NCBI GenBank assembly: GCA_964437795.1 | Contig: CAYTIC010000004.1 | Coordinates: 3,475-67,474 of the forward strand | Length of the DNA stretch: 64,000 nucleotides | From: an uncultured Dehalococcoidales bacterium | Lineage (GTDB): Bacteria > Chloroflexota > Dehalococcoidia > GIF9 > UBA5629 | Direction of reading: 5' to 3' | Part shown: piece by piece, positions 22,659-35,344 of the stretch | Layout: every line of letters starts with the position of its first letter | Position numbering within the stretch: position 1 is the first letter of the stretch | Position numbers and translations under genes: made by a program | The notes under the pieces: generated by a model | What the model was told of the DNA's origin: nothing | Database searches by the model: none | The model's input: only the letters and a program-made list of their open reading frames with translations

Positions 22659-22676
22659 GTGCGTCAGATCAACTTT

Positions 22677-24326
22677 ATGAGAATTAGTCATATTCGAATC
22701 AGGGCGGTCCCCGTCCTGATACTGCCTTTGGTTATCGTAGCAGCGGTGCTAAGCGCCTGCAGCGGTCCCGGCATTGCGGATTCACTTGTAAAAGTACAAT
22801 CCGGTGACACGGTTGTCAACGGTATAATCATCGATAGCACCGGCTACATAGTCACCGGCGCTGGCGCGCTGGGCGACGCCGGCGCCCTGTCCGTTGAGCT
22901 TAAACCCGGGCAGAGCTATACAGGCCGTTTGATATGCAGGGATAGCGCCAGGAACCTGGCAATCCTCAAGATCGAAGGCGGTTACCCTGCGCTCAAGCCT
23001 GCCCTGCTGGGAGATTCTGATCTGGTTCATCAGTGGGATGAAGTGACTGTCTGGGGTAACATGCCGGGCACTTCAAGCCCGGTAGAATCAAAGGGCGCCG
23101 TAACTTCACTGCCCAAGGACGAGGGAACTGCCTACCTGCAGACGAATGCCGCTCTGGACCCGTCGGCGGCCGGAAGCGCCGTCCTGAACAAGGCCGGTGA
23201 GCTGGTCGGGATGGTTTCCTGGAATGCCGGACAGGTGGGCCGGGAAGGGTTCGTGCTATCTTCCAACGAGGTGAAGACGGTACTGACCCAGGCGCAGGAA
23301 GCAGAGGCTGATCCGCTTACTATCGTGTTGCCCGACCCACCGGACGTTTTCAGCGACCGCGCAGTAATATCCTGGAAGACTAACCGCCCGGCAACCGGAC
23401 AGGTGGAGTTCGGTCCAAAAGACTCGTACGGCAACAAGACGGCTTTGGATACGACCATGCTGACTACTCATGCGGCAGTACTGCAGGGACTTGTGCCGAA
23501 AATGACCTATTATTTCCGTGTGCTTTCTGAGGACTGCTGCGGCAACACGGCGGCATCCAGGGGATATACGCTCACCACCACGGCAGCAGGCGCCCAGGGG
23601 GGCAAATTCACGATCTCAAATATAGACGTCTACGATATCACCAGTTCAGCCGCGTCGGTGAGATGGATTACCAACAAACCGGCCACGGGCGCTGTAACCT
23701 ACCGGGCGGATAAAGCGACGGAATCCGATAGTGAAAGCGATAATAGTTTTGTGTACGAACACAAATTCAGGCTGAGCGGCCTGAGCCCGGAGACGCGCTA
23801 TAACGTGAGCATCAAATCTGAGACGGATTTCGATGAATCTGCCGGGCAGGCCCTGGACCCCTTCATGACGCCGCCGACTTCACCGGTCTGTTGTAAGATC
23901 AACTGCAGGATCCCCGATTTCTCTTTTAAAACACTCCAGGGGACCGATTTTACCAACAAGGATATTGCGGGCAAAAAGGTGTTCATCGTGTTTACCAAGA
24001 CCACATGCCCGACCTGCATGAAGCAGGCCCTTTTCCTTAACGATGTCATTCGAGATTGGCCAAAGGGGACCGATATGATGATGTTCATGGTGGCCAGCAG
24101 CGAGAAGAAAGCCGATGTCGAGGAGTGGATCAAGAAATACGGGCTGAACATGCCCGTTTATATAGACTCGACGGCCAACCTGGTCAGCGGGTGCCAGTTC
24201 AGGACCATACCCACGGCGCTTTTCCTGGATACCGGGTCGGTTATCAGGGACTACAAGAGCGGCGGATTCGGCAGCAAAAAAGACATGGAAGAGTCGTTGA
24301 AGCAGTTCTATCAGAAAGAGCGATAG
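22677..24326 (+). CDS. lipoprotein: degenerate S1 (HtrA-like) protease domain + two FN3/PAP-N-like domains + TlpA/ResA-like thioredoxin domain
   Basis: Lipobox LSAC; the trypsin-like region has PSAAGSAV where the GNSGG catalytic-Ser motif is expected (Ser to Ala); C-terminal TTCPTC thioredoxin motif. Confidence 0.7.
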   Translation: MRISHIRIRAVPVLILPLVIVAAVLSACSGPGIADSLVKVQSGDTVVNGIIIDSTGYIVTGAGALGDAGALSVELKPGQSYTGRLICRDSARNLAILKIEGGYPALKPALLGDSDLVHQWDEVTVWGNMPGTSSPVESKGAVTSLPKDEGTAYLQTNAALDPSAAGSAVLNKAGELVGMVSWNAGQVGREGFVLSSNEVKTVLTQAQEAEADPLTIVLPDPPDVFSDRAVISWKTNRPATGQVEFGPKDSYGNKTALDTTMLTTHAAVLQGLVPKMTYYFRVLSEDCCGNTAASRGYTLTTTAAGAQGGKFTISNIDVYDITSSAASVRWITNKPATGAVTYRADKATESDSESDNSFVYEHKFRLSGLSPETRYNVSIKSETDFDESAGQALDPFMTPPTSPVCCKINCRIPDFSFKTLQGTDFTNKDIAGKKVFIVFTKTTCPTCMKQALFLNDVIRDWPKGTDMMMFMVASSEKKADVEEWIKKYGLNMPVYIDSTANLVSGCQFRTIPTALFLDTGSVIRDYKSGGFGSKKDMEESLKQFYQKER

Positions 24327-24399: not shown

Positions 24400-26037
24400 T
24401 TAAGACCTGAATACGAAGCTGAGCGCGCCTGCAAGATCGATGGTATCACCGTCGTTCAGGGCGTGCTTGCCCGTACCCTTTATGGAGGAGCCGTTCAGCC
24501 TGGTGCCGTTAGTGCTGCCCCGGTCCTCGACATAGTACTGGCCGTTTTCATAGCTGACCGTGATATGTTGCCTGGATATCAGGTCGGCTTTGTCGGGGGC
24601 TACCATGGACTGGAAGTCCCTGCGCCCCAGAGGATTGCCGTCACCCGCCAGCGAAAGCTCGCTGCCGTTGGAGGCAACGAATTTGGCCGGTGGGCCAACG
24701 GATACCGGCGTGGTTTTGGGAGAACCTGTGGCCGGCAGTGTGGCAACGGGTGAAGTGACAGCAGGCATGGTGCCACCACGTGCGGTGCCATAATGAGCGA
24801 CCTGCGCAGCAGGCTTTCGCAGCAGCAGTATAACTATTATGATGGCGGCGGCGCCTAACAGGGCGATGAGCAGGAGATAAGGCAGCCACCAGGCCAGCGT
24901 CGAATTGCCGTTGCCTGCGCTGGGGATGGTGCTGATCTGGCTTGCAGCGGGAATTGATTCCGTTGTACCGGTATAGGCACTATCGGTGTAATAAGTGCTG
25001 CCGATATAGGGAGCTACTGTAACCGTAGTGCTGGCTACCGCCGTACCCCCGCTGTTGGATGCTGACAGGGTATACGTGGTCGTATAAGCGGGCGTTACAA
25101 CATACATACCGTTATTGGGCACCGAGCCCACCGACGGCGATATGCTGACGTTGGCCGTGTTGTCCACCATCCAGGACAATGTGGCAGTTTGTCCCGACTG
25201 TATATAGCTGGGATTAGCTGTGAATGAGCTGATCACAGGCGCGTAGACCGGGGTAGGTGTGGAAGGCACCACTACGATTGGGTAGGAAGGTGTGATCCAG
25301 GACCTGTACCACGGATAGGGATAGGGATTATATGGGGGGTAGGGAGGATATGGCGGCCGCGGATGTGGAGGAGGTGGTGGCGGCCATGGTGATGGCGGCC
25401 CCGGAGGTGGCGGACCTGGAGGTGGCGGCCATGGAGGTGGCGGACCCGGAGGCGGTGGCCCCGGAGGAGGCGGTCCTGGAGGAGGTGGTCCCGGGGGAGG
25501 TGGAGGAGGCGGATATGGGTATGCCGGCCCGCCGACGGGCGGCGCAGGTGTTATAACCTGGTCTATGATTGTTGGTGACGAGGACGGTGGTGTCGCCGGC
25601 GGCAAAGGGGGTGGTGGGAGAGTGACCTCCGGCGGAGGTGGCGTAGCCTCGGCTACAAGTGTAGGGGGCAATGGCGGCGCTGGATCTGAAGCAGGCATAA
25701 CGGTAGTCTCAGCTACCGGGGCGGAGATAACAGGAAGAATCACAGCCGACGCGTCGATTACCGGAGGCGAGAGTGGCGGAGGTGTATATATGGCTCCCGG
25801 CCCGCCGACGGGCGGCGCAGGTGTTATAACCTGGGCCATGATTGTCGGTGACGAAAGCGGCGGTGTCGTCGTATCAACAGGAGTTTCGGATGGCGCCGGT
25901 TCATCGGCGTAGAACACGCTTGCAGACCGGCTTGTTGAAACATCCTGCGCTGCAGAGGCAGGCGTAAGCGGCAGCATGAGTGCAGAGCAGATTAATAGCG
26001 CTGCCGCAAGGAACTGTATAGTTTTATTTATGTTCAT
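24400..26037 (-). CDS. single-pass membrane protein: signal peptide, Pro-rich stalk with internal repeat, Ig-like domain, TM, C-terminal cytoplasmic FHA domain (FHA paralog 1)
   Basis: AGGAGG RBS; signal peptide; extreme (PPPPG)n tract; TM LLLIALLGAAAIIIVILLL; FHA signature GRRD…SRQH…STNGT. Confidence 0.8.
   Translation of the reverse strand: MNINKTIQFLAAALLICSALMLPLTPASAAQDVSTSRSASVFYADEPAPSETPVDTTTPPLSSPTIMAQVITPAPPVGGPGAIYTPPPLSPPVIDASAVILPVISAPVAETTVMPASDPAPPLPPTLVAEATPPPPEVTLPPPPLPPATPPSSSPTIIDQVITPAPPVGGPAYPYPPPPPPPGPPPPGPPPPGPPPPGPPPPWPPPPGPPPPGPPSPWPPPPPPHPRPPYPPYPPYNPYPYPWYRSWITPSYPIVVVPSTPTPVYAPVISSFTANPSYIQSGQTATLSWMVDNTANVSISPSVGSVPNNGMYVVTPAYTTTYTLSASNSGGTAVASTTVTVAPYIGSTYYTDSAYTGTTESIPAASQISTIPSAGNGNSTLAWWLPYLLLIALLGAAAIIIVILLLRKPAAQVAHYGTARGGTMPAVTSPVATLPATGSPKTTPVSVGPPAKFVASNGSELSLAGDGNPLGRRDFQSMVAPDKADLISRQHITVSYENGQYYVEDRGSTNGTRLNGSSIKGTGKHALNDGDTIDLAGALSFVFRS
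25385..25510 (-). repeat. coding tandem repeat, ~15-bp unit (GGAGGTGGCGGNCCN on the + strand) encoding (PPPPG)n
   Basis: about 8 consecutive units visible in the DNA; lies within FHA paralog 1. Confidence 0.7.
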
Positions 26038-26057: not shown

Positions 26058-27641
26058 CTATATTTTAAAGGTGATACTAAGTTTATCGGCCAGCTCAACT
26101 ACATCACCGTCGACAAGGGCCTGCCTTCCATTGCCGCGGATCTCGGAGCCGTTGACCCTGGTGCCGTTTGTGCTGCTGCGGTCCTCGATATAGTATTTTC
26201 CATCTTCATACCATACGTTTATGTGCTGCCTGGATATGAATGAGGACCTTTCTCCGGGAAGAAGCTTTTCAAAGTCCTGGCGGCCTAACGTCCTGGTATT
26301 GCCGGCCAGCAGCATCTCGCTTCCGTCGGGCATAACCAACTTGGCCGGCGGAGCTTCCGTGACTGAAGTAGACGGTCCGGAATCGCCCGCTGTTGAAGTG
26401 GCGGCAGTCGATGTGGCGGCGGCAGAGGTAGAGGCAGCAGATGTAGCTGAGGCTGCCCGGGCGCCCGCTGCGCCGGTCGGATGGGATGCCCGGGGTCTCC
26501 TGACCAGCATTATGACTATCACGGTGGCCGCTATGGCCAGAAGTCCCAGAAGGCCGTAAAGCAGGTAGGGCGGTTGCTCAACTAATAAGGTTACAGCCAC
26601 CGCCTGTGTGGTACCGTCGATGTATGTGGCGGTTAGGTTGTAGGTGGTTGTTTGATCGGGCGTCACCGTCATAGTCCCCATAGCGTCGAAGTTACCCAGC
26701 CCTTCTATAAAAACCTTTACAGCGGCCGGGGCATTCCACGAAAGTACAGTGGATTGACCGGACTGTATGGTGGGCTGCTGTACGGTCAAAGTCGGTGATA
26801 CCCTCGGTATAACACTGATACTGGTGTTGGCGGTAACCGTGCTGCCTGAACTGCCCGTTGCCGACAGGGTGTAAGTGGTGGTTGCACCTGGGGTAACGGT
26901 CGTTGAACCCGATGTGCCCACTGTCCCAATCCCCGGAGTAATGGCGACGTTATTAGCGTTTGTGGTGGTCCAGGTAAGGGTGACCGTCTGTCCGACATCT
27001 ACCGACGATGCATTTGCACTGAAGGAGTTGATCACAGGCGGGTAGATCGGCCTGGGCGATGGCCCGCTGTAAGGGGAAATACTTCCGCGCGTATAGTTGA
27101 AGCTCAGGGTGCGTGTCGACCATGAGAAGCCGGAGTTGTACCACATCTTCCAGACATAGAGACCGTCGGGGTCCCATGATTCGGCGCTGAACGGCCCGAT
27201 CCGCCACATGCCCGCGTAGGGCCTGTACCACCTGTAGCACAGCCAGTGGCCATAGGGGGTGCTTCCCTGTGGGTAGTATTCCCACAGGTAAAAGTAACCC
27301 GGGCCGTTAAATGATACAACCAGGTAGCACAGGTCATTGCGGTACAGGTTGTACAACGTTTGCCCGTAGCTGGTCACAAGGTAGGCATTTACGATCGAAC
27401 CGGCAGCTCCCGGCGGGGGTGGTGTCGGGACCGTCATCTGGAGGCTGGGCCAGGTCTGATTGTAAGTATCAACTGCGACCGGGGGCTCAACCATTTCGCC
27501 GCCATCGTCCGGCGGTTGCCAGCTTTCATCGGGATTGACCGGTGGGGATGGCTGAGCCTGAACAGGCGAAAATACTGCAGCCGCTGCAGATACGACCATG
27601 AATGTGATCAGCAACGGTATAATTATCTTTTTCATATACAT
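26058..27641 (-). CDS. single-pass membrane protein: signal peptide, aromatic-rich ectodomain, two Ig-like domains, TM, C-terminal FHA (FHA paralog 2)
   Basis: AGGAGGTGA RBS; YLWEYYPQG…WR(I/L)GPF domain shared with paralog 3; Ig-like repeats shared with paralog 1; FHA GRQD…SRQH…STNGT. Confidence 0.8.
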   Translation of the reverse strand: MYMKKIIIPLLITFMVVSAAAAVFSPVQAQPSPPVNPDESWQPPDDGGEMVEPPVAVDTYNQTWPSLQMTVPTPPPPGAAGSIVNAYLVTSYGQTLYNLYRNDLCYLVVSFNGPGYFYLWEYYPQGSTPYGHWLCYRWYRPYAGMWRIGPFSAESWDPDGLYVWKMWYNSGFSWSTRTLSFNYTRGSISPYSGPSPRPIYPPVINSFSANASSVDVGQTVTLTWTTTNANNVAITPGIGTVGTSGSTTVTPGATTTYTLSATGSSGSTVTANTSISVIPRVSPTLTVQQPTIQSGQSTVLSWNAPAAVKVFIEGLGNFDAMGTMTVTPDQTTTYNLTATYIDGTTQAVAVTLLVEQPPYLLYGLLGLLAIAATVIVIMLVRRPRASHPTGAAGARAASATSAASTSAAATSTAATSTAGDSGPSTSVTEAPPAKLVMPDGSEMLLAGNTRTLGRQDFEKLLPGERSSFISRQHINVWYEDGKYYIEDRSSTNGTRVNGSEIRGNGRQALVDGDVVELADKLSITFKI

Positions 27642-27798
27642 AAATCACCTCCGGGTGAGCTGTATGCTTTTATCCAGTATAAAGGTGTCGTCCCCACTCT
27701 GCTTGACCACTGCCTTACAAGTGCCTGACAATTTTATGATAAGACGGAGGTTAACCGATTTTGAGACAGGATAATATCACACTGAAGGGGAAAACAGA

Positions 27799-28905
27799 CT
27801 ACTGGTCGGACCTGAGCTTAATGCTGGCCTTGCCGGCCATCTCTATTACATCTCCGTCATGCAAATCCACCAACCCCGCACCCCTTATATCCCGGCCGTT
27901 GACGGTAGTGCCGTTTGCGCTGTCCATATCCTCGATAAAAGGCTTTCCTTCCTCGAAACTGATCCTGAAGTGCCGCTTGGATATCGCTCCCAGTTCATCC
28001 AGTCCCAGCGACCTGGCGATATGGGCCCGTCCGATTATTTCGCTTTCGCCGCCCAGCCGTATCTTCTGCCCGTTGGGCAATTCCAACGTAGCCAGGGCTG
28101 TTCCGCGCACCTGTGTGCGTGCCGGCGCCGACGGTTTCTCGAGCAGTTCTACCAAGGGTTGATTCACCTCGTTTTGCGGATAACGCCGTTCTCGCAGGGA
28201 CCGGCGCACGAGCCACCCCATCAGTACGATGAGGACTATGATTGAAGGGGCAATCAGCAGGGTCACGGGATTGGTGATGAATTTAATAAACTGGTCGCCA
28301 GGTGATACCGGCGGCACTGCTGCGGGGGTTGAAACGGCCTGCGTATTTTCTCCCGTGCCTTTTTCGTAGTCCCAGTAGACAAGGTCGCTTTTCTGTGTAC
28401 CGCCAGTCGCCCACTGTCCGTTTCCATAGAAGAAAAACCTGTAGATATGCTGCCCTACAAGCTCGTCCTCACCCGGCCAGAACGGACCAAGCCGCCATCT
28501 CCCGGGCTCCAGCAATTGCCATTTATAGGCTATCCATTTTCCCTGGCTTTCACCCCCTGAGGGGTAATACTCATATATATACAGCCAGCCCGGGGTATTG
28601 ATGTCGACATCGAGGTACCATTGCTCATCCCCCGACACTTTGTGGCCGCCAGCGGTGAACTTCCCCCACAGGCCGGCAATCAGCCCCGGCGGCGCGTCTG
28701 AAGGCTGTGCCGTAGCGCCCTGTAACACGAGGGTAACGGGCGGCTTTATCTCGCTATGCTGGGTATCGCCCTCGGGTTCGGGAATTGTGTAGTTCTCGGT
28801 CGGGGCGCCCATGGCATAAGCAGGTACGTGTGTAATAACGGCGGCGCCCAGTGATGACAGTAGAATGGCCAGCGTAAATACAAGTGCAGGTATCCGCCGG
28901 CTCAT
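27799..28905 (-). CDS. single-pass membrane protein: signal peptide, aromatic-rich ectodomain, TM, C-terminal FHA (FHA paralog 3)
   Basis: Start ATG overlaps the STK stop (ATGA); FHA GRAH…SKRH…SANGT. Confidence 0.8.
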   Translation of the reverse strand: MSRRIPALVFTLAILLSSLGAAVITHVPAYAMGAPTENYTIPEPEGDTQHSEIKPPVTLVLQGATAQPSDAPPGLIAGLWGKFTAGGHKVSGDEQWYLDVDINTPGWLYIYEYYPSGGESQGKWIAYKWQLLEPGRWRLGPFWPGEDELVGQHIYRFFFYGNGQWATGGTQKSDLVYWDYEKGTGENTQAVSTPAAVPPVSPGDQFIKFITNPVTLLIAPSIIVLIVLMGWLVRRSLRERRYPQNEVNQPLVELLEKPSAPARTQVRGTALATLELPNGQKIRLGGESEIIGRAHIARSLGLDELGAISKRHFRISFEEGKPFIEDMDSANGTTVNGRDIRGAGLVDLHDGDVIEMAGKASIKLRSDQ

Positions 28906-29921
28906 TTGGATACCTCCAGTGCTTTCACCTCGCCGGTGCTTGAAACCAGGAGGGCTGTCCTCATGGCCACGGCGCTGGCAAACCTGCTGCCGGGGGAGTA
29001 CATAATGGACTGCGCGAGACAGCGGGCAGTCTTTTTAGAGAAGCCTGCTGAAATCATGTGGTCCGCCACCGTGCCGGCCTCCGCATAACTGCGCGGCCAG
29101 GAGGTGTGGATCAACTCGGTGCACAGGTCGTTGGGTTGCCTGAGTGTGAGCAGGTATATGCAGGTCTGGGCCAGGCCGCACAGGTCGCAGCGCTGGTCGC
29201 TCTCACCGCCGATGAAAAGTTCAGGTATGTCAAAACCCTTGTTAGCTATCTGGGTGAAGGGGTCAGTCCTGATGGTGTCCTTCTTCATGCTTTCCAGGCT
29301 TTTGGCCGTGCCGAAGTCGATCAGCTTAATGCCGCCATTGCCGCTCAGCATGATGTTCTTGGGATTGATGTCCCTGTGCACGATGCCGGCAGCATGGATA
29401 TAGGCCAGGGCATCCAGCGCCTGGCCGGCCCAGAACAGGACCTTTTGCTCACCGGCCGATGTCCTTGGCGAGGAGGACATGATGGTTTCACCTGTTATCA
29501 ACTCAAGCACCAGGTGGAATTCTCCCCTGTAATAAAAATCATCCAGATATGTGACTATGTTGGGGTGCTGCAGCCTTTTCAGGAAACCTGCCTCCTGGCG
29601 CAGCTTGTCCAGGTATACGTTGTCCATGGTAGTGCCCCTGCGGGGCGTCTTGATGATGCATTTCCTGCCGTTGGTGCGGTCCCTGGCCAGCCAGATATTC
29701 GCCATGCCCCCCTGTTTGAATGCCGGCGCTTTGAGCTCATAGCGGCCGTTAACGCGATGTTTGCTTTCAGGCTGGGCCGGCTGCGGCCGCAGGGGCTCTC
29801 CGCGGCGCAGTGCGGAAGCCCTCATTTTGCGCCTCTGGATTGCCTGAATAATGGCCACAATCACAGGTACACTGGTGAAAACCAGCGCAATGACTATTAC
29901 GAAAAGGGTAGGATCGTCCAT
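28902..29921 (-). CDS. Hanks-type Ser/Thr protein kinase, N-terminal TM anchor, no extracellular sensor
   Basis: VAIK-like lysine (CIIKTP), HRDINPKN catalytic loop (atypical spacing), DFG, IPE; ATGA overlap with the PP2C stop. Confidence 0.85.
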   Translation of the reverse strand: MDDPTLFVIVIALVFTSVPVIVAIIQAIQRRKMRASALRRGEPLRPQPAQPESKHRVNGRYELKAPAFKQGGMANIWLARDRTNGRKCIIKTPRRGTTMDNVYLDKLRQEAGFLKRLQHPNIVTYLDDFYYRGEFHLVLELITGETIMSSSPRTSAGEQKVLFWAGQALDALAYIHAAGIVHRDINPKNIMLSGNGGIKLIDFGTAKSLESMKKDTIRTDPFTQIANKGFDIPELFIGGESDQRCDLCGLAQTCIYLLTLRQPNDLCTELIHTSWPRSYAEAGTVADHMISAGFSKKTARCLAQSIMYSPGSRFASAVAMRTALLVSSTGEVKALEVSK

Positions 29922-30724
29922 CAGGCTGTTCTTACCCCCGTCTTTGCCGATATCAAAGCCTGCCAGGAAGGAAGGCCGCCCGGCCTGGCGATAATGACCG
30001 ATATATTGTCCGGGCCGCCGACCAGGTTGGCCTGCGAGACCAGGTCGGAGCAGGCCTGCGAGGGACTGGCCGAAGCGAGCACCGTTTCCTCGATTTTATC
30101 CGTAGGGAGCACTCCGCAAAGGCCGTCCGAGCACAGGAGCACGTTGTCGCCGGCGTATAGCTTGATCTGTATGAGGTCCGGCACGCTGTTTGCACTGTAT
30201 CCCAGCACGCGTGTTATCTCGTTGCGGCGAGGGTGGGCTAAGGCTTCACCGGACGATATCTGCCCGGTATCTACAAGCTCCTGCACCACTGAATGGTCCG
30301 TTGTGACCTGTATGGTCTCCCTGGAGTTGATAATATAACAGCGGGAGTCTCCAATATGCGCCACGTACATGTCCTGGCCTATCAAAAGGGCGGCAGTGAG
30401 AGTGGTACCCATGCCCTGCAGCGATTTTTCCGCTGCGGCTTCGAGGACAGCGCTGTTAGCCTTGCTGAAGGCAGCGCCCATCAGTGGCAGCCCCGGCTTC
30501 GACGACCTGGTCAGCAAACCGGAGATACATTCAGCCTGGAAAATCCTGATAGCCAGGTCGCTGGCTATCTCCCCGGCATCGTGGCCGCCCATCCCGTCCG
30601 CGACGGCTAACAGGCCTGCCGATACCATTCCGGAGTGCGTCCGCAGGTCAAAGGTGCTGCAGAAGATGCTGTCTTCGTTAAGCTTTCTCACCAGGCCGGT
30701 GTCCCAGCCGTAACCAGTGTCCAA
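29921..30724 (-). CDS. PP2C-family Ser/Thr phosphatase
   Basis: LAVADGMGGHDAGEIAS metal-binding motif; TTG start 6 nt after an AAGGAG RBS. Confidence 0.85.
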   Translation of the reverse strand: MDTGYGWDTGLVRKLNEDSIFCSTFDLRTHSGMVSAGLLAVADGMGGHDAGEIASDLAIRIFQAECISGLLTRSSKPGLPLMGAAFSKANSAVLEAAAEKSLQGMGTTLTAALLIGQDMYVAHIGDSRCYIINSRETIQVTTDHSVVQELVDTGQISSGEALAHPRRNEITRVLGYSANSVPDLIQIKLYAGDNVLLCSDGLCGVLPTDKIEETVLASASPSQACSDLVSQANLVGGPDNISVIIARPGGLPSWQALISAKTGVRTA

Positions 30725-30746: not shown

Positions 30747-31229
30747 TTAACCTGACCTGAAGATCAGTGTGGCGCCCGGCTGCCTGGCCAGTTCTATCCT
30801 GTCGCCATCTTTAAGAGGCTGCTTACCTTTATGATGGATATCAATGTTGTTGACCCTGGTGTGATTGGTGCTGCCGGTCCCGTCGCGTCCGTGATCCTGC
30901 ACATAATAGGTTCCCTTTTCATATGTCAGCAGCAGATGCTGCCTGGAGATGCTCATTAAAGCGTCCTGCTGGAGTTTGCCCTCAAAGTCACTGCGCTGAA
31001 TGAACTGAGGAATGCTATTGAGGACGATTTCATTACCCCCCGGCAAGATCAGCCTGGCCGTAGACCCCAGCGGCTCAGCTTCAATGATCTCCTCAACAGC
31101 CATGCCGCCGAGCGCAGGTTCCGACTCTGTGAACAGGTAATTGCCGCAACTATAACAGAAAAAACTGCCGGCGCCGTTCAAACCGTGACAGGCCGGGCAG
31201 ATTACACTGACGCTTATTACCTCTTCCAT
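30747..31229 (-). CDS. zinc-ribbon + FHA domain protein
   Basis: CPACHG…CYSCG zinc ribbon followed by FHA SRQH…STNHT. Confidence 0.75.
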   Translation of the reverse strand: MEEVISVSVICPACHGLNGAGSFFCYSCGNYLFTESEPALGGMAVEEIIEAEPLGSTARLILPGGNEIVLNSIPQFIQRSDFEGKLQQDALMSISRQHLLLTYEKGTYYVQDHGRDGTGSTNHTRVNNIDIHHKGKQPLKDGDRIELARQPGATLIFRSG

Positions 31230-31268
31230 AACGATCGTACAATTGTAAGCTGCCGAAGATGATATTGC

Positions 31269-31297
31269 TTGACAGCTTACTGACGAATACCTAATAT
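31269..31297 (+). promoter_or_regulatory. sigma70-type promoter (TTGACA-N17-TAATAT) for the FHA-wHTH regulator
   Basis: -35 31269-31274, -10 31292-31297; in the divergent intergenic region. Confidence 0.45.
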
Positions 31298-31387
31298 AAA
31301 TCTGACATATTTAAACTCTATGACGATTGTCCTTGATATATTATACTGCAAGAGGATATACAGACTTTACAAGGCTGGAGTCCGGTG

Positions 31388-32071
31388 ATGGCTTTCATCA
31401 TAGTTAAGAAAGGTGATGCTGAGGATATCGGTAAAATATTTACCCTGAGCAGGGCTAATATGGTGATAGGCCGCCGCACACCAAAGTATAAGCCAGACAT
31501 CGAGTTAAGCGATGAAGCCGTCTCAAGGCGGCATGTCGAGATCATTGAGAAAGACGGCCGTTATCAATTGCGTGACCTGGGCAGCACAAATGGGACTATG
31601 CTGGATGATGACAGGATACTGCCCGGCAAGCTATATGAGTTGAAACACAACTGTAAAATTGGATTGGGGGTAGCAGCAGGCCCGGCGCAGGTCTTGTTGA
31701 TTTTCAAGCAGTCGGAGAGTACTAACCTGATGGGGAGGCAGGGGGCAAGTCCGGTTGAAAAGGTCATTGCAACGGACGTCAGCTGGCTGAAGATCGACGA
31801 GGCCAGGAAGGAGGTCTGTGTGGACGGCGAACCCGTAAAACTGTCGCGCAAGGAGTACGAGTTGCTGATGTTCCTTTACCAAAACGCCGGCGCAGTCTGC
31901 CTGCGCGACGAGATTATTAAGGTTGTGTGGTCCGAGAGCCAGGACCCGGCTGCCATATCCGACGCAACCCTCGACCAGCTTGTGCACCGTCTGCGCGAGA
32001 AGGTTGAACCCGAGCCTGTTAATCCAACACGCATCATAAGCCGAAAAGCCTTCGGCTATATGCTGGTTTAA
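31388..32071 (+). CDS. FHA domain + OmpR/PhoB-type winged-helix DNA-binding domain transcriptional regulator
   Basis: N-terminal FHA (GRR…SRRH…STNGT); C-terminal trans_reg_C (KLSRKEYELLMFLYQNAGAVCLRDEII…LDQLVHRLREKVE). Confidence 0.8.
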   Translation: MAFIIVKKGDAEDIGKIFTLSRANMVIGRRTPKYKPDIELSDEAVSRRHVEIIEKDGRYQLRDLGSTNGTMLDDDRILPGKLYELKHNCKIGLGVAAGPAQVLLIFKQSESTNLMGRQGASPVEKVIATDVSWLKIDEARKEVCVDGEPVKLSRKEYELLMFLYQNAGAVCLRDEIIKVVWSESQDPAAISDATLDQLVHRLREKVEPEPVNPTRIISRKAFGYMLV

Positions 32072-32081
32072 AACAGGCTGT

Positions 32082-32951
32082 CTAATATTTGAACGGCCGC
32101 TCTTTCCACCAGGGATAAAACGCGGGCATGTCCTTGCCCGTTTTCATAGGGAAGGCAGGCTGCCGTTTCTCAAGGAATGACATGATGCCCTCCTTTGCCT
32201 CCGGTGTGCCGAAGATCCAGTTGAGCCCCTTTGATTCCAACTGGTGGGCCTCCATAGGATGGTCGGCGCCCAGCATCTTCCACATGAGCTGACGGCAGAG
32301 GGCTATGGAAATAGAAGAGGAGTTCTGCGCGATTTGGGCGGCTATCTCTCGAGCACGCGGCAGCAGCGCGTCGGGCTCAAGAAGTTCGCTCACAAGGCCC
32401 CGTTCGAATGCCTCCTGTGCTTTAAACACCCTGCCGCTGTAAACCCATTCGGTCGCCACGCCCATGTTCACCAGCCGTGTTAAAAACCAGCTGGCGCAGC
32501 CGTCAAAGATGATACCGCGTCTGCAAAAGACCAGCCCCATCTTAGCGTTGGTCGAGGCTATGCGGATATCCATGGGGAATGTCATGGTTATGCCGAATCC
32601 AACTGCCGGCCCGTTGATGGCAGCGATAATAGGCTTCTTCAGGTCGAATATGCGCAGTACAACGATGCCACCCTCATCCCTGTGCGGCTGGTCATCCTCT
32701 CTGCCCATAAACCTTTCCATGAAGTACGAGGAGTCCTCTGTGTCGCCTCCCAGGGCCGCCCCTGCGCTGAACGCCCTGCCGGCGCCGGTGACTATGATGA
32801 CACGCACTTCATCGTCGTTATCCGCGCGATCGAATGCGTGAAGCAGCTCTGTGCAGGTAGACGCTGTGATCGAGTTCATCTTGTCGGGATTGTTAAGCGT
32901 CAACGTGAGGATGCCCTCCGACACCTCGTATTTCAGCTCCTTGTACTCCAT
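32082..32951 (-). CDS. enoyl-CoA hydratase/isomerase family protein
   Basis: Crotonase motifs (VTGAGRAFSAGAALGG…). Confidence 0.85.
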   Translation of the reverse strand: MEYKELKYEVSEGILTLTLNNPDKMNSITASTCTELLHAFDRADNDDEVRVIIVTGAGRAFSAGAALGGDTEDSSYFMERFMGREDDQPHRDEGGIVVLRIFDLKKPIIAAINGPAVGFGITMTFPMDIRIASTNAKMGLVFCRRGIIFDGCASWFLTRLVNMGVATEWVYSGRVFKAQEAFERGLVSELLEPDALLPRAREIAAQIAQNSSSISIALCRQLMWKMLGADHPMEAHQLESKGLNWIFGTPEAKEGIMSFLEKRQPAFPMKTGKDMPAFYPWWKERPFKY

Positions 32952-34093: not shown

Positions 34094-35344
34094 CTAAATA
34101 CCACCCTCGATGCAGTATTCCCGTAGCGTATTGAGCGCGGCGAAAAACTCTTTCATCATGGTGCCTACTGTATACATACCGCGCCTGGTGACTGAGATCC
34201 GTCCGCCGTTTTCCCTGACTATTCCGGCGGCTTTGAAAAAGAGCAGTTCGGCCCACAACTTCGCATGGATATCAGAACCGAAGCGCTCCCGGAACCGCTG
34301 AGATTCCAGGCTCATGCCGAAAAACCTGGTCAGCATGAAATACCGGTAATGCTCCATAGTCGAGAGGCGGCGCATGCGCACTATGGGCAGACGCTGTTGT
34401 GAAATCAGCTTATGGTAGCCGTCCAGCGAGAAGGAGTTCACCAGGAAGTCTCCTCCCAGGAAGCTGACGGATCCCGCGCCGATTCCGATATAGTCGTCGT
34501 AATCGATGATGTACTCGTCGATCATGAGGTCGCCGCGCGAGAAGCACCAGGCGGTGGAAGCCTTGTATCCGCTATCCAGCAGCTCTCTCAGTATTATCTC
34601 GTAATACTGCCTCTCAAGGGAGGTATCCACCCTGCGGAACTTCTTTGTCAACGCATCCAGTTTATGAGGTGACGGCATGAGCGGGTAAAATGTGGCCTGG
34701 TCCGTGCCGAGGTCTTTGAAAATCCGGAGGTCCGACCGGAATTGCTCCAGTGTCTGAGTAGGGAAGTTAAACATGAGGTCCACGTTGACCGTGTCGAACT
34801 TACCCTGAGCCAGCTTCAGCTTTTCGATGGAATCCTCGCCTTTGAAAAGCGTCCTTCCCATTGCCTTGAGCAGCGAATTATCGAAGCTCTGCACGCCTAC
34901 CGAGAGCCGGTTAACGCCGAGGTGTTTCAGCTGGTTAATGGTGTCCGGCGTGAGCTCTCGCGGCGTCGTCTCAAGGGAGATGCGCTTGATGTCGAATTTC
35001 GATCCCAGGTAATCTATAAAGCCGGACAGCTCGTCCATGAGAACTGTGGGCGTGCCGCCCCCGAAATAGAAGTCGTTGAACTTGAATCCCAGTTTGGCGT
35101 ACATATCGACTTCCTTACGCAGGTCCGCGAAATAGCTGCGGGCCTGGTCCTCCTTGAACAAGAAGCGGTTGAAACAGCAGAAAGGGCAGAGCGTGCGGCA
35201 GAACGGTATGTGGATGTAGAGAGAGACGCGGTCACCCCGCATCTTGCCTTCGGAGGAGATGCGCGTAAGGTCCACGTCGCCCGTGAATCCGAGGAACTTT
35301 TTGCCTTCGTAGCGAACAACGGAGCCGGCAAACCTCGATATCAT
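34094..35344 (-). CDS. radical SAM protein, HemN/HemW (oxygen-independent coproporphyrinogen oxidase-like) family
   Basis: LYIHIPFCRTLCPFCCF (CxxxCxxC) near the N-terminus; HemN-like C-terminal domain; the true start may be the internal ATG at ~35242. Confidence 0.8.
   Translation of the reverse strand: MISRFAGSVVRYEGKKFLGFTGDVDLTRISSEGKMRGDRVSLYIHIPFCRTLCPFCCFNRFLFKEDQARSYFADLRKEVDMYAKLGFKFNDFYFGGGTPTVLMDELSGFIDYLGSKFDIKRISLETTPRELTPDTINQLKHLGVNRLSVGVQSFDNSLLKAMGRTLFKGEDSIEKLKLAQGKFDTVNVDLMFNFPTQTLEQFRSDLRIFKDLGTDQATFYPLMPSPHKLDALTKKFRRVDTSLERQYYEIILRELLDSGYKASTAWCFSRGDLMIDEYIIDYDDYIGIGAGSVSFLGGDFLVNSFSLDGYHKLISQQRLPIVRMRRLSTMEHYRYFMLTRFFGMSLESQRFRERFGSDIHAKLWAELLFFKAAGIVRENGGRISVTRRGMYTVGTMMKEFFAALNTLREYCIEGGI

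Follow-up and report, generated by a model that had tools for sequence, protein, structure and literature searches.

Routes from Hanks-type kinases to bacterial transcription are known in few cases, and EmbR of Mycobacterium tuberculosis is the main one that contains an FHA domain. EmbR is also the closest characterised protein to the subject of this study, a regulator encoded in a 64,000-nucleotide stretch of DNA from an uncultured Dehalococcoidales bacterium (contig CAYTIC010000004.1 of assembly GCA_964437795.1, positions 3,475 to 67,474; hereafter the window, numbered from its first letter). Both proteins join an OmpR-type winged helix-turn-helix (wHTH) to an FHA domain and both genes lie beside that of a Hanks kinase, in EmbR's case PknH, of which EmbR is a substrate and whose interaction with it requires the FHA domain (PMC4601284). 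The order of EmbR is wHTH, BTAD and FHA, whereas the regulator, of 227 aa, runs from FHA through a linker to wHTH and has no BTAD. PhoB, PhoP and RegX3 share with it the C-terminal domain, 11-bp-phased repeats with a TGTCA core over the -35 region (the operator of the regulator being predicted) and predicted autoregulation, but the regulator has neither a receiver nor a phospho-acceptor Asp, and it is partnered by a Hanks kinase and a PP2C phosphatase where those have a histidine kinase. DgcB of Bdellovibrio bacteriovorus, an FHA-GGDEF protein, likewise places an N-terminal FHA domain before an output domain (its FHA domain ranks near the top of the structural matches, TMt 0.87-0.89) and binds through it the phosphorylated tail peptide of another chain (PDB 6HC1, 6HBZ); its output is, however, a diguanylate cyclase, and its phospho-site is N-terminal rather than in a linker after the FHA domain. 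GarA and OdhI, the closest FHA folds (root-mean-square deviation, rmsd, 1.5-2.0 Å), use a kinase-phosphorylated Thr outside the FHA core that is then bound by the FHA domain, but they are stand-alone FHA proteins that regulate enzymes, by an intramolecular switch via an N-terminal ETTS motif. In Myxococcus xanthus, Jelsbak and colleagues reportedly described in 2005 sigma-54 enhancer-binding proteins that carry an FHA domain in the receiver's place and are linked to Ser/Thr kinases. The output of those activators is AAA+/sigma-54, whereas that of the regulator is an OmpR-type wHTH on sigma-70-type promoters. No characterised regulator combining FHA and Trans_reg_C was found in the full-text literature searched, where absence is not proof of absence. 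The parts, and the concept of FHA-coupled transcription factors, are known; undescribed as far as we found are the architecture, the pairing with a kinase operon and the operator arrays.

On balance, we lean towards reading the regulator as the transcription-factor arm of a Hanks-kinase/PP2C module, that is, a PhoB-like activator of the kinase cluster that would repress its own gene and take a phosphothreonine input at residue T112. The gene and the parts of its product lie in the window as follows:

31388..32071, plus strand: FHA-wHTH regulator gene (227 aa and stop), from the open reading frame list, Pfam and alignment with relatives
31377..31380, plus strand: Shine-Dalgarno GGAG of the regulator gene, 7 nt before ATG 31388
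31388..31717, plus strand: FHA domain, residues 1-110 (Pfam PF00498, AlphaFold2, Foldseek, residue conservation)
31718..31771, plus strand: disordered linker, residues 111-128 (AlphaFold2), with the T112 codon at 31721-31723
31772..32068, plus strand: OmpR/PhoB-type winged helix, residues 129-227, with recognition helix 192-206 (TLDQLVHRLREKV) and wing 216-226

The open reading frame as listed begins at an in-frame GTG at 31385 and runs on the plus strand to 32071 (228 aa); the start was set at ATG 31388 by alignment with 90 relatives and by the Shine-Dalgarno GGAG. Most orthologues have TTG at this codon and some have GTG, which suggests deliberately low translation initiation. In the Pfam search, residues 27-95 scored 61.9 bits as FHA (cut-off 20.7, E 8.1e-17) and residues 148-227 scored 64 bits as Trans_reg_C (PF00486; cut-off 26.2, E 1.3e-17) along the full model, positions 1-77 of 77; neither Response_reg nor BTAD was matched. 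An earlier note on this DNA had proposed an N-terminal FHA domain and a C-terminal trans_reg_C domain, in the reverse of the EmbR order and without BTAD, and the search bears this out on each point. NCBIfam response-regulator models (PhoB, RpaB, YycF, RstA, MtrA) matched only the C-terminal ~100 residues, far below their cut-offs, and the match of the NCBIfam FHA models (FhaB/FipA, OdhI) was confined to the N-terminal part. The C-terminal half resembles the DNA-binding domains of PhoB, RpaB, RegX3 and VicR (E 1e-17 to 1e-10), and a PDB sequence search returned single-domain matches only, with no full-length match. The AlphaFold2 model, run with a 28-sequence alignment, contains two confident domains (residues 1-110 and 129-227, pLDDT about 90) separated by a disordered linker (residues 111-128, pLDDT <50); its pTM is 0.50, and the packing between the domains is therefore not fixed. 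Within the modelled wHTH, helices at 154-165, 173-180 and 192-206 are followed by a beta hairpin at 216-226. Foldseek comparison with the PDB matched the N-terminal domain to the FHA domains of GarA, OdhI, DgcB and FhaA (TMt 0.83-0.93, rmsd 1.5-2.5 Å) and the C-terminal domain to the DNA-binding domains of RpaA and VicR, and retrieved no solved chain spanning both.

These assignments are further strengthened by residue conservation. The phosphothreonine-binding residues of the FHA domain (G28 and R29; S46, R47 and H49; S66, N68, G69 and T70) are invariant in 78 close homologues, and the domain, with its pocket residues intact, is predicted to bind phosphothreonine. Loss of the recognition-helix and wing residues, which by the earlier note would have overturned its assignment, was not seen, W181, R201, R203, G223 and Y224 being conserved. 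The key residues of both domains are kept in the 78 close homologues and in about 60-70 of 72 distant ones (R29 in 61/72, N68 in 54/72). By its domains and key residues, the protein is an OmpR/PhoB-type winged helix with a predicted phosphothreonine-binding FHA domain in place of the receiver. It differs from response regulators in that its N-terminal half is an FHA beta-sandwich rather than a receiver with a phospho-acceptor Asp, and from the EmbR/SARP type in that the order of N-terminal wHTH followed by BTAD is reversed; it shares with the latter a place beside the cognate Hanks kinase (55/55 loci and three distant family members). The description 'one-component regulator' used in the earlier note holds insofar as input and output, FHA and wHTH only, sit in one chain with neither histidine kinase nor receiver. 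It is loose wording in that the FHA domain would read a phosphate mark written by a separate kinase, and the protein looks like the output of a kinase/phosphatase pathway, for which, rather than for a stand-alone sensor, its obligatory linkage to the kinase/phosphatase operon argues.

Conservation also singles out a threonine, T112, at the start of the disordered linker, which is present in 78/78 close and 62/72 distant members and is as conserved as the phosphothreonine-binding residues. The residues that come after it in the close clade are [ILV] at +2 and [ILM] at +3, so that the +3 residue is hydrophobic in all close relatives; FHA domains commonly prefer such a residue there. T112 is thus marked by its conservation as a candidate phospho-acceptor. 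The phosphothreonine pocket of an FHA domain lies on loops at the end of the fold opposite to the exit of the last strand; T112 comes a few residues past that strand, so that a contact in cis seems improbable, and contacts in trans would build head-to-tail chains.

The architecture is not confined to this genome. A search of 5.8 billion proteins with the regulator gave 410 matches, the best 120 of which all have the same architecture (222-236 aa, 60-100% identity); the few named ones among these 120 come from Dehalococcoidia/Chloroflexota metagenome-assembled genomes (MAGs), where their annotation goes no further than 'FHA domain-containing' or 'winged helix-turn-helix domain-containing'. When 1.84 billion cluster representatives (clusters at 50% identity) were searched exhaustively with HMMER, 666 matches reached E <=1e-10, and about half of the best 150 (at least ~75) are roughly 200-240 aa long with a single stretch over both domains. 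FHA-wHTH is therefore a broad family and not a one-off fusion. Its named members include Chloroflexota and Bacillota MAGs, and a scan of genome contigs with the single regulator protein returned six full-length relatives.

The cluster that the regulator faces comprises six genes, given here with the number of loci in which each was found:

30747..31229, minus strand: Zn-ribbon and FHA protein, 160 aa, first gene of the divergent operon (Pfam; 77/77 loci)
29921..30724, minus strand: PP2C Ser/Thr phosphatase (Pfam; 64/64 loci)
28902..29921, minus strand: Hanks-type Ser/Thr kinase, HRD and DFG present (Pfam; 55/55 loci)
27799..28905, minus strand: transmembrane FHA protein 1 (TM-FHA 1), with an extracytoplasmic domain and a cytoplasmic C-terminal FHA domain (Pfam; 51/51 loci)
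26058..27641, minus strand: TM-FHA 2, 527 aa (Pfam; 40/43 loci)
24400..26037, minus strand: TM-FHA 3, 545 aa, FHA at residues 470-535

The synteny sample consisted of 90 loci with regulator orthologues at 60-93% identity, in which the window neighbours were located by tblastn, and the counts take in only loci with enough flank to judge. The genes for the Zn-ribbon-FHA protein, PP2C, the kinase, TM-FHA 1 and TM-FHA 2 all lie on the strand opposite to the regulator at nearly fixed distances. The divergence of the regulator from a kinase operon, noticed earlier from this one locus, is therewith a conserved arrangement (55/55 to 77/77 loci), and a functional link between the two is, by synteny, strongly supported. 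More remote relatives keep comparable company: a Bacillota MAG relative (28% identity) is divergent from a PP2C/TPR-kinase operon, two kinase genes come after a 31% relative on a high-GC contig and a 1586-aa TPR-kinase after another 31% relative, and a 49% relative, on short contigs, is divergent from an FHA gene. In this 49% relative, FHA genes stand on both sides of the regulator, and a caspase/legumain-like peptidase (Peptidase_C13/C14), not PP2C, comes after the divergent FHA gene (L135 2-979, L136 3-1847, minus strand).

Several features of the cluster proteins deserve mention in their own right. The sole anchor of the kinase is an N-terminal transmembrane segment (residues about 6-28), and it has no extracytoplasmic sensor domain; the start and stop codons of its gene overlap those of the PP2C and TM-FHA 1 genes, which suggests translational coupling. 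TM-FHA 1, 2 and 3 each consist of a signal/transmembrane segment, a large extracytoplasmic part, a second transmembrane helix and a C-terminal cytoplasmic FHA domain, and TM-FHA 1 and TM-FHA 2 share an unannotated aromatic-rich motif (WLYIYEYYPSGG...GKWIAYKW...GRWRLGPF and FYLWEYYPQGS...GHWLCYRW...GMWRIGPF). The TM-FHA proteins may be the sensing surface of, or partners for, the ectodomain-less kinase. The Zn-ribbon-FHA protein has an N-terminal CPxC...CxxC zinc ribbon and an FHA domain, the domain combination of Sulfolobus ArnA.

The intergenic regions of this cluster contain two conserved arrays of phased direct repeats, with the following elements:

31266..31307, minus strand: array A, four 11-bp-phased direct repeats, predicted operator (conservation in 70 unique sequences)
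31269..31297, plus strand: P1, the regulator's own promoter TTGACA-N17-TAATAT (-35 at 31269-31274, -10 at 31292-31297)
31242..31247, minus strand: -10 box TACAAT of the Zn-ribbon-FHA promoter, 18 nt after GTCAAGCA
27700..27741, minus strand: array B, of the same four-repeat architecture, upstream of TM-FHA 2
27676..27681, minus strand: -10 box TATACT, promoter of TM-FHA 2/3, 18 nt after GTCAAGCA

Read on the minus strand from distal repeat 4 to proximal repeat 1, arrays A and B superpose in register:

Repeat 4: array A TGTCAG (31307-31302); array B consensus TGTCAG
Repeat 3: array A TATTAG (31296-31291); array B consensus TGTCAG
Repeat 2: array A cGTCAG (31285-31280); array B consensus TGTCAG
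Repeat 1: array A GTCAAGCA (31273-31266); array B consensus GTCAAGCA

Array A emerged from the alignment of 70 unique upstream regions (10 in a first pass). Of the 42 columns of this block (TGCTTGACAGCTnnCTGACGAATACCTAATATAAATCTGACA), 29 are at least 95% conserved, against 3/36, 0/32 and 0/25 in neighbouring intergenic stretches, and the conservation was unchanged when only the 47 sequences below 70% protein identity were used. Its cores lie 11 bp apart (TGAC at 31270-73 and 31281-84, TAAT at 31292-95 and TGAC at 31303-06). P1, already picked out in the earlier note as a promoter facing the regulator, is nearly invariant in the 70 sequences and is embedded in the array, its -35 box coinciding with repeat 1 and its -10 box with the degenerate repeat 3. 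The P1 spacer and the region after the -10 box are conserved as strongly as the boxes themselves, and the promoter alone hence does not explain the block. Repeat 3 departs from TGTCAG exactly as needed for a plus-strand TAATAT (TAACAT in more distant relatives), and the array with an embedded TTGACA-N17-TAAnAT promoter is also found in the 49% and 40% relatives (TTGACA-N17-TAACAT). Given this degenerate repeat and the same embedded promoter in relatives, P1 appears to be a genuine promoter interleaved with array A. Upstream of a 31% relative, CTGACC-N5-CTGACC is accompanied by a third copy 22 bp away.

On the minus strand, a TAnnnT follows the GTCAAGCA of array A at exactly N18 in 61/64 unique sequences, the N18 itself being unconserved; the Zn-ribbon-FHA promoter shows no -35 consensus, and the proximal repeat takes that position. 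The ATG of the Zn-ribbon-FHA gene lies 12 nt after the -10 box and has no Shine-Dalgarno sequence, so the mRNA is predicted to be near-leaderless. When the window was scanned for phased repeats, a single further intergenic site came up, at 27703-27729 in the 157-nt gap between TM-FHA 1 and TM-FHA 2, and alignment of this gap from 42 unique loci revealed array B. In the window it reads TATCAT, TGTCAG, TGTAAG and GGTCAAGCA (in full on the minus strand, TTTTGTCAGnAAACTGTCAGnnACCTGTCAGCCnGGGGTCAAGCAG), with a consensus of three TGTCAG units and GGTCAAGCA. Here, too, a TAnnnT follows GTCAAGCA at N18, in 35/35 unique sequences with the N18 unconserved, a -35 consensus is missing where the proximal repeat sits, and a leader of about 35 nt with GGAGG precedes the TM-FHA 2 start. 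Both arrays therefore have the make-up of a Pho-box-like promoter, with a repeat array over the -35 region, a -10 box and no -35 consensus; Pho boxes stand in for the -35 element of activated promoters. Neither the rest of the window nor 877 kb of related loci contains a further instance of the strict repeat pattern on either strand, and the full four-repeat pattern is expected 0.00 times in window shuffles. An apparent third site, in loci L104 and L109, proved to be array B displaced by an insertion.

Such tandem direct repeats are what OmpR-family effector domains bind, head-to-tail, the E. coli Pho box having the core CTGTCAT (PMC4415409), and M. tuberculosis PhoP recognises 7-bp repeats separated by 4-bp spacers (PMC4832192). 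Arrays A and B are accordingly predicted, by this analogy, to be operators of an OmpR-family wHTH. Their units have the same length, the same orientation to the genes that would be activated and the same TGTCA core as OmpR-family sites, from which we infer that the regulator binds and activates there. Specifically, its wHTH domains would occupy the arrays head-to-tail, as PhoB and PhoP occupy Pho boxes, and the array-bound protein would act as a class-II-type activator, each array holding the -35 position of a minus-strand promoter. The promoter at array A would drive the Zn-ribbon-FHA, PP2C, kinase and TM-FHA 1 genes and that at array B TM-FHA 2/3, while binding at array A would occlude P1 on the other strand and so produce negative autoregulation. 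The state of the kinase would be read via the FHA domain, an input to which the obligatory synteny, the intact phosphothreonine pocket and the conserved threonine all point. The most likely route is that the kinase phosphorylates T112 in the linker (T-N-[ILV]-[ILM]), that phosphorylated T112 (pT112) is then bound in trans by the FHA domain of a neighbouring protomer, giving head-to-tail oligomers that would suit tandem direct repeats, and that PP2C removes the mark. Precedents for FHA-phosphothreonine binding in trans are DgcB (PDB 6HC1/6HBZ) and, as self-association, the dimerisation of MDC1 (PMC3351161).

Several points weigh against this account. The pairing of regulator and arrays is itself a prediction from sequence, and another OmpR-family regulator could bind the arrays. 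Between the proximal TGTCA core and the -10 box there are 22 bp, a distance that exceeds the one in E. coli Pho-box promoters by about a helical turn. Activation rather than repression at the minus-strand promoters is suggested only by the missing -35 consensus, and T112 phosphorylation only by conservation, with 10/72 distant members having no Thr there. The AlphaFold2 model is uninformative on oligomers or phospho-states, and the regulon may be larger, the genome scan having covered 64 kb. Moreover, the model does not account for a second conserved block in the 5' untranslated region (UTR) of the regulator:

31340..31350, no strand assigned: second conserved block ATTATACTGCA (conservation in the upstream alignment)

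On the minus strand the ATTATA of this block, at least 95% conserved, spells a perfect TATAAT; neither strand has a conserved -35, and the block is missing in the 49% relative. A second plus-strand promoter candidate for the ATTATA, ATGACG-N16-TATACT, has a poorly conserved -35 that is broken by indels. The block may serve an array-independent promoter as its -10 box, or another factor may bind there. An RNA element was rejected as a candidate, RNAalifold finding no pairs in the 83-nt 5' UTR (13 sequences) and Rfam giving no match at the gathering threshold, there or anywhere in the window.

Our second choice, which we nonetheless regard as unlikely, is that the free regulator on both arrays represses all three promoters until autophosphorylation of the kinase lets the FHA domain dock on the kinase phosphothreonines, which titrates the regulator to the membrane and derepresses the cluster. 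Array A spans P1 from the -35 box to about +3, so that P1, at the least, must be repressed by the bound regulator, and the kinase is membrane-anchored; FHA domains often dock on phosphorylated kinases, as in EmbR-PknH (PMC4601284), and DNA binding by an isolated OmpR-family effector domain can be constitutive (PMC4415409). However, two minus-strand promoters that have no -35 consensus and an array exactly there bear the hallmark of activator-dependent promoters, and pure sequestration leaves the conserved T112 unexplained. It is improbable, in our judgement, that the arrays belong to a different factor, such as a conventional PhoB/OmpR-type response regulator encoded elsewhere, with the FHA-wHTH protein acting on other targets. 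The repeat core TGTCA does resemble the CTGTCAT of the E. coli Pho box, the genome is in view over 64 kb only and the binding of the regulator is predicted, but the arrays travel with the regulator gene across orthologues at 60-100% identity and into the 49%, 40% and 31% relatives, one of them holds the regulator's own promoter, as is typical of autoregulation, and the conserved cluster contains no other wHTH gene.

The model of the earlier note, in which an inverted repeat serves autoregulation and the regulator couples envelope signals to the crotonase and acyl-CoA genes, now seems very improbable. The repeat does exist (gtaagctg at 31245-31252 and cagcttac at 31273-31280, 20 nt apart), but an 8-bp inverted repeat with a 3-30 nt loop arose by chance in 313/5000 shuffles of the 158-nt intergenic region, about 6%. 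It is perfect in 3/70 unique orthologous sequences and has at most 5/8 complementary positions in 53/70, and conservation along its left arm is 24-61%, the exceptions being T31246 and A31247, two bases of the minus-strand -10 box. As an operator it was therefore rejected on shuffles and conservation; OmpR-family domains bind direct repeats, and the conserved cis-element is the 11-bp-phased direct repeats. The coupling rested on the gene next to the regulator:

32082..32951, minus strand: crotonase, convergent with the regulator

It adjoins the regulator in the window and in 15/20 loci at 75% identity or above, but in 0/41 at 60-68%, while the kinase operon is always kept, and pattern scans of the window found no repeat array near the catabolic genes. 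Least credible of all is that the cluster is a Ser/Thr-kinase-based module for defence against phages. The kinase domain matches the PADLOC PD-T4-6 and mad6 kinase profiles (E 1e-43 to 1e-19); however, only the generic kinase and, weakly, PP2C match, the regulator and all four other FHA proteins have no PADLOC match, and, unlike mobile defence islands, the cluster keeps one chromosomal position and its flanks in many species-level relatives.

Two neighbours mark the surroundings of the locus. A multidomain protein (Trypsin_2, purple-acid-phosphatase-N, fn3 and Redoxin/AhpC-TSA; 22659-24326, plus strand) borders the far end of the FHA cluster, and it does so in loci L001 and L004 too. In many relatives, including ones that have lost the crotonase, a HemN-like radical SAM gene (34094-35344, minus strand; 74-96% identity) stays within a few kb on the downstream side of the regulator, at a variable distance of about 0.7 to 4.7 kb, which probably reflects conserved gene order rather than co-regulation.

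Overall, the regulator offers a minimal two-domain system of 227 aa with a testable circuit, comprising a kinase, a phosphatase, a candidate phospho-site and two operators predicted at base-pair resolution, whose predicted logic combines positive feedback on the sensor module with negative autoregulation. We would further propose, tentatively and as a speculation that may well fail, that FHA-wHTH proteins with Hanks kinases and PP2C make up a threonine-based equivalent of two-component systems that is widespread, from Chloroflexota and Bacillota to other phyla, and in which pT112-driven head-to-tail polymerisation of FHA domains matches the four tandem repeats. If true, this polymerisation would be a new activation mechanism for the OmpR family and would solve in a different way the geometric problem that this family faces between symmetric dimers and tandem repeats. 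Because the family is broad and the association with kinases persists in its relatives from other phyla, the characterisation of a single member would help to annotate many genomes, among them those of uncultured Dehalococcoidia.

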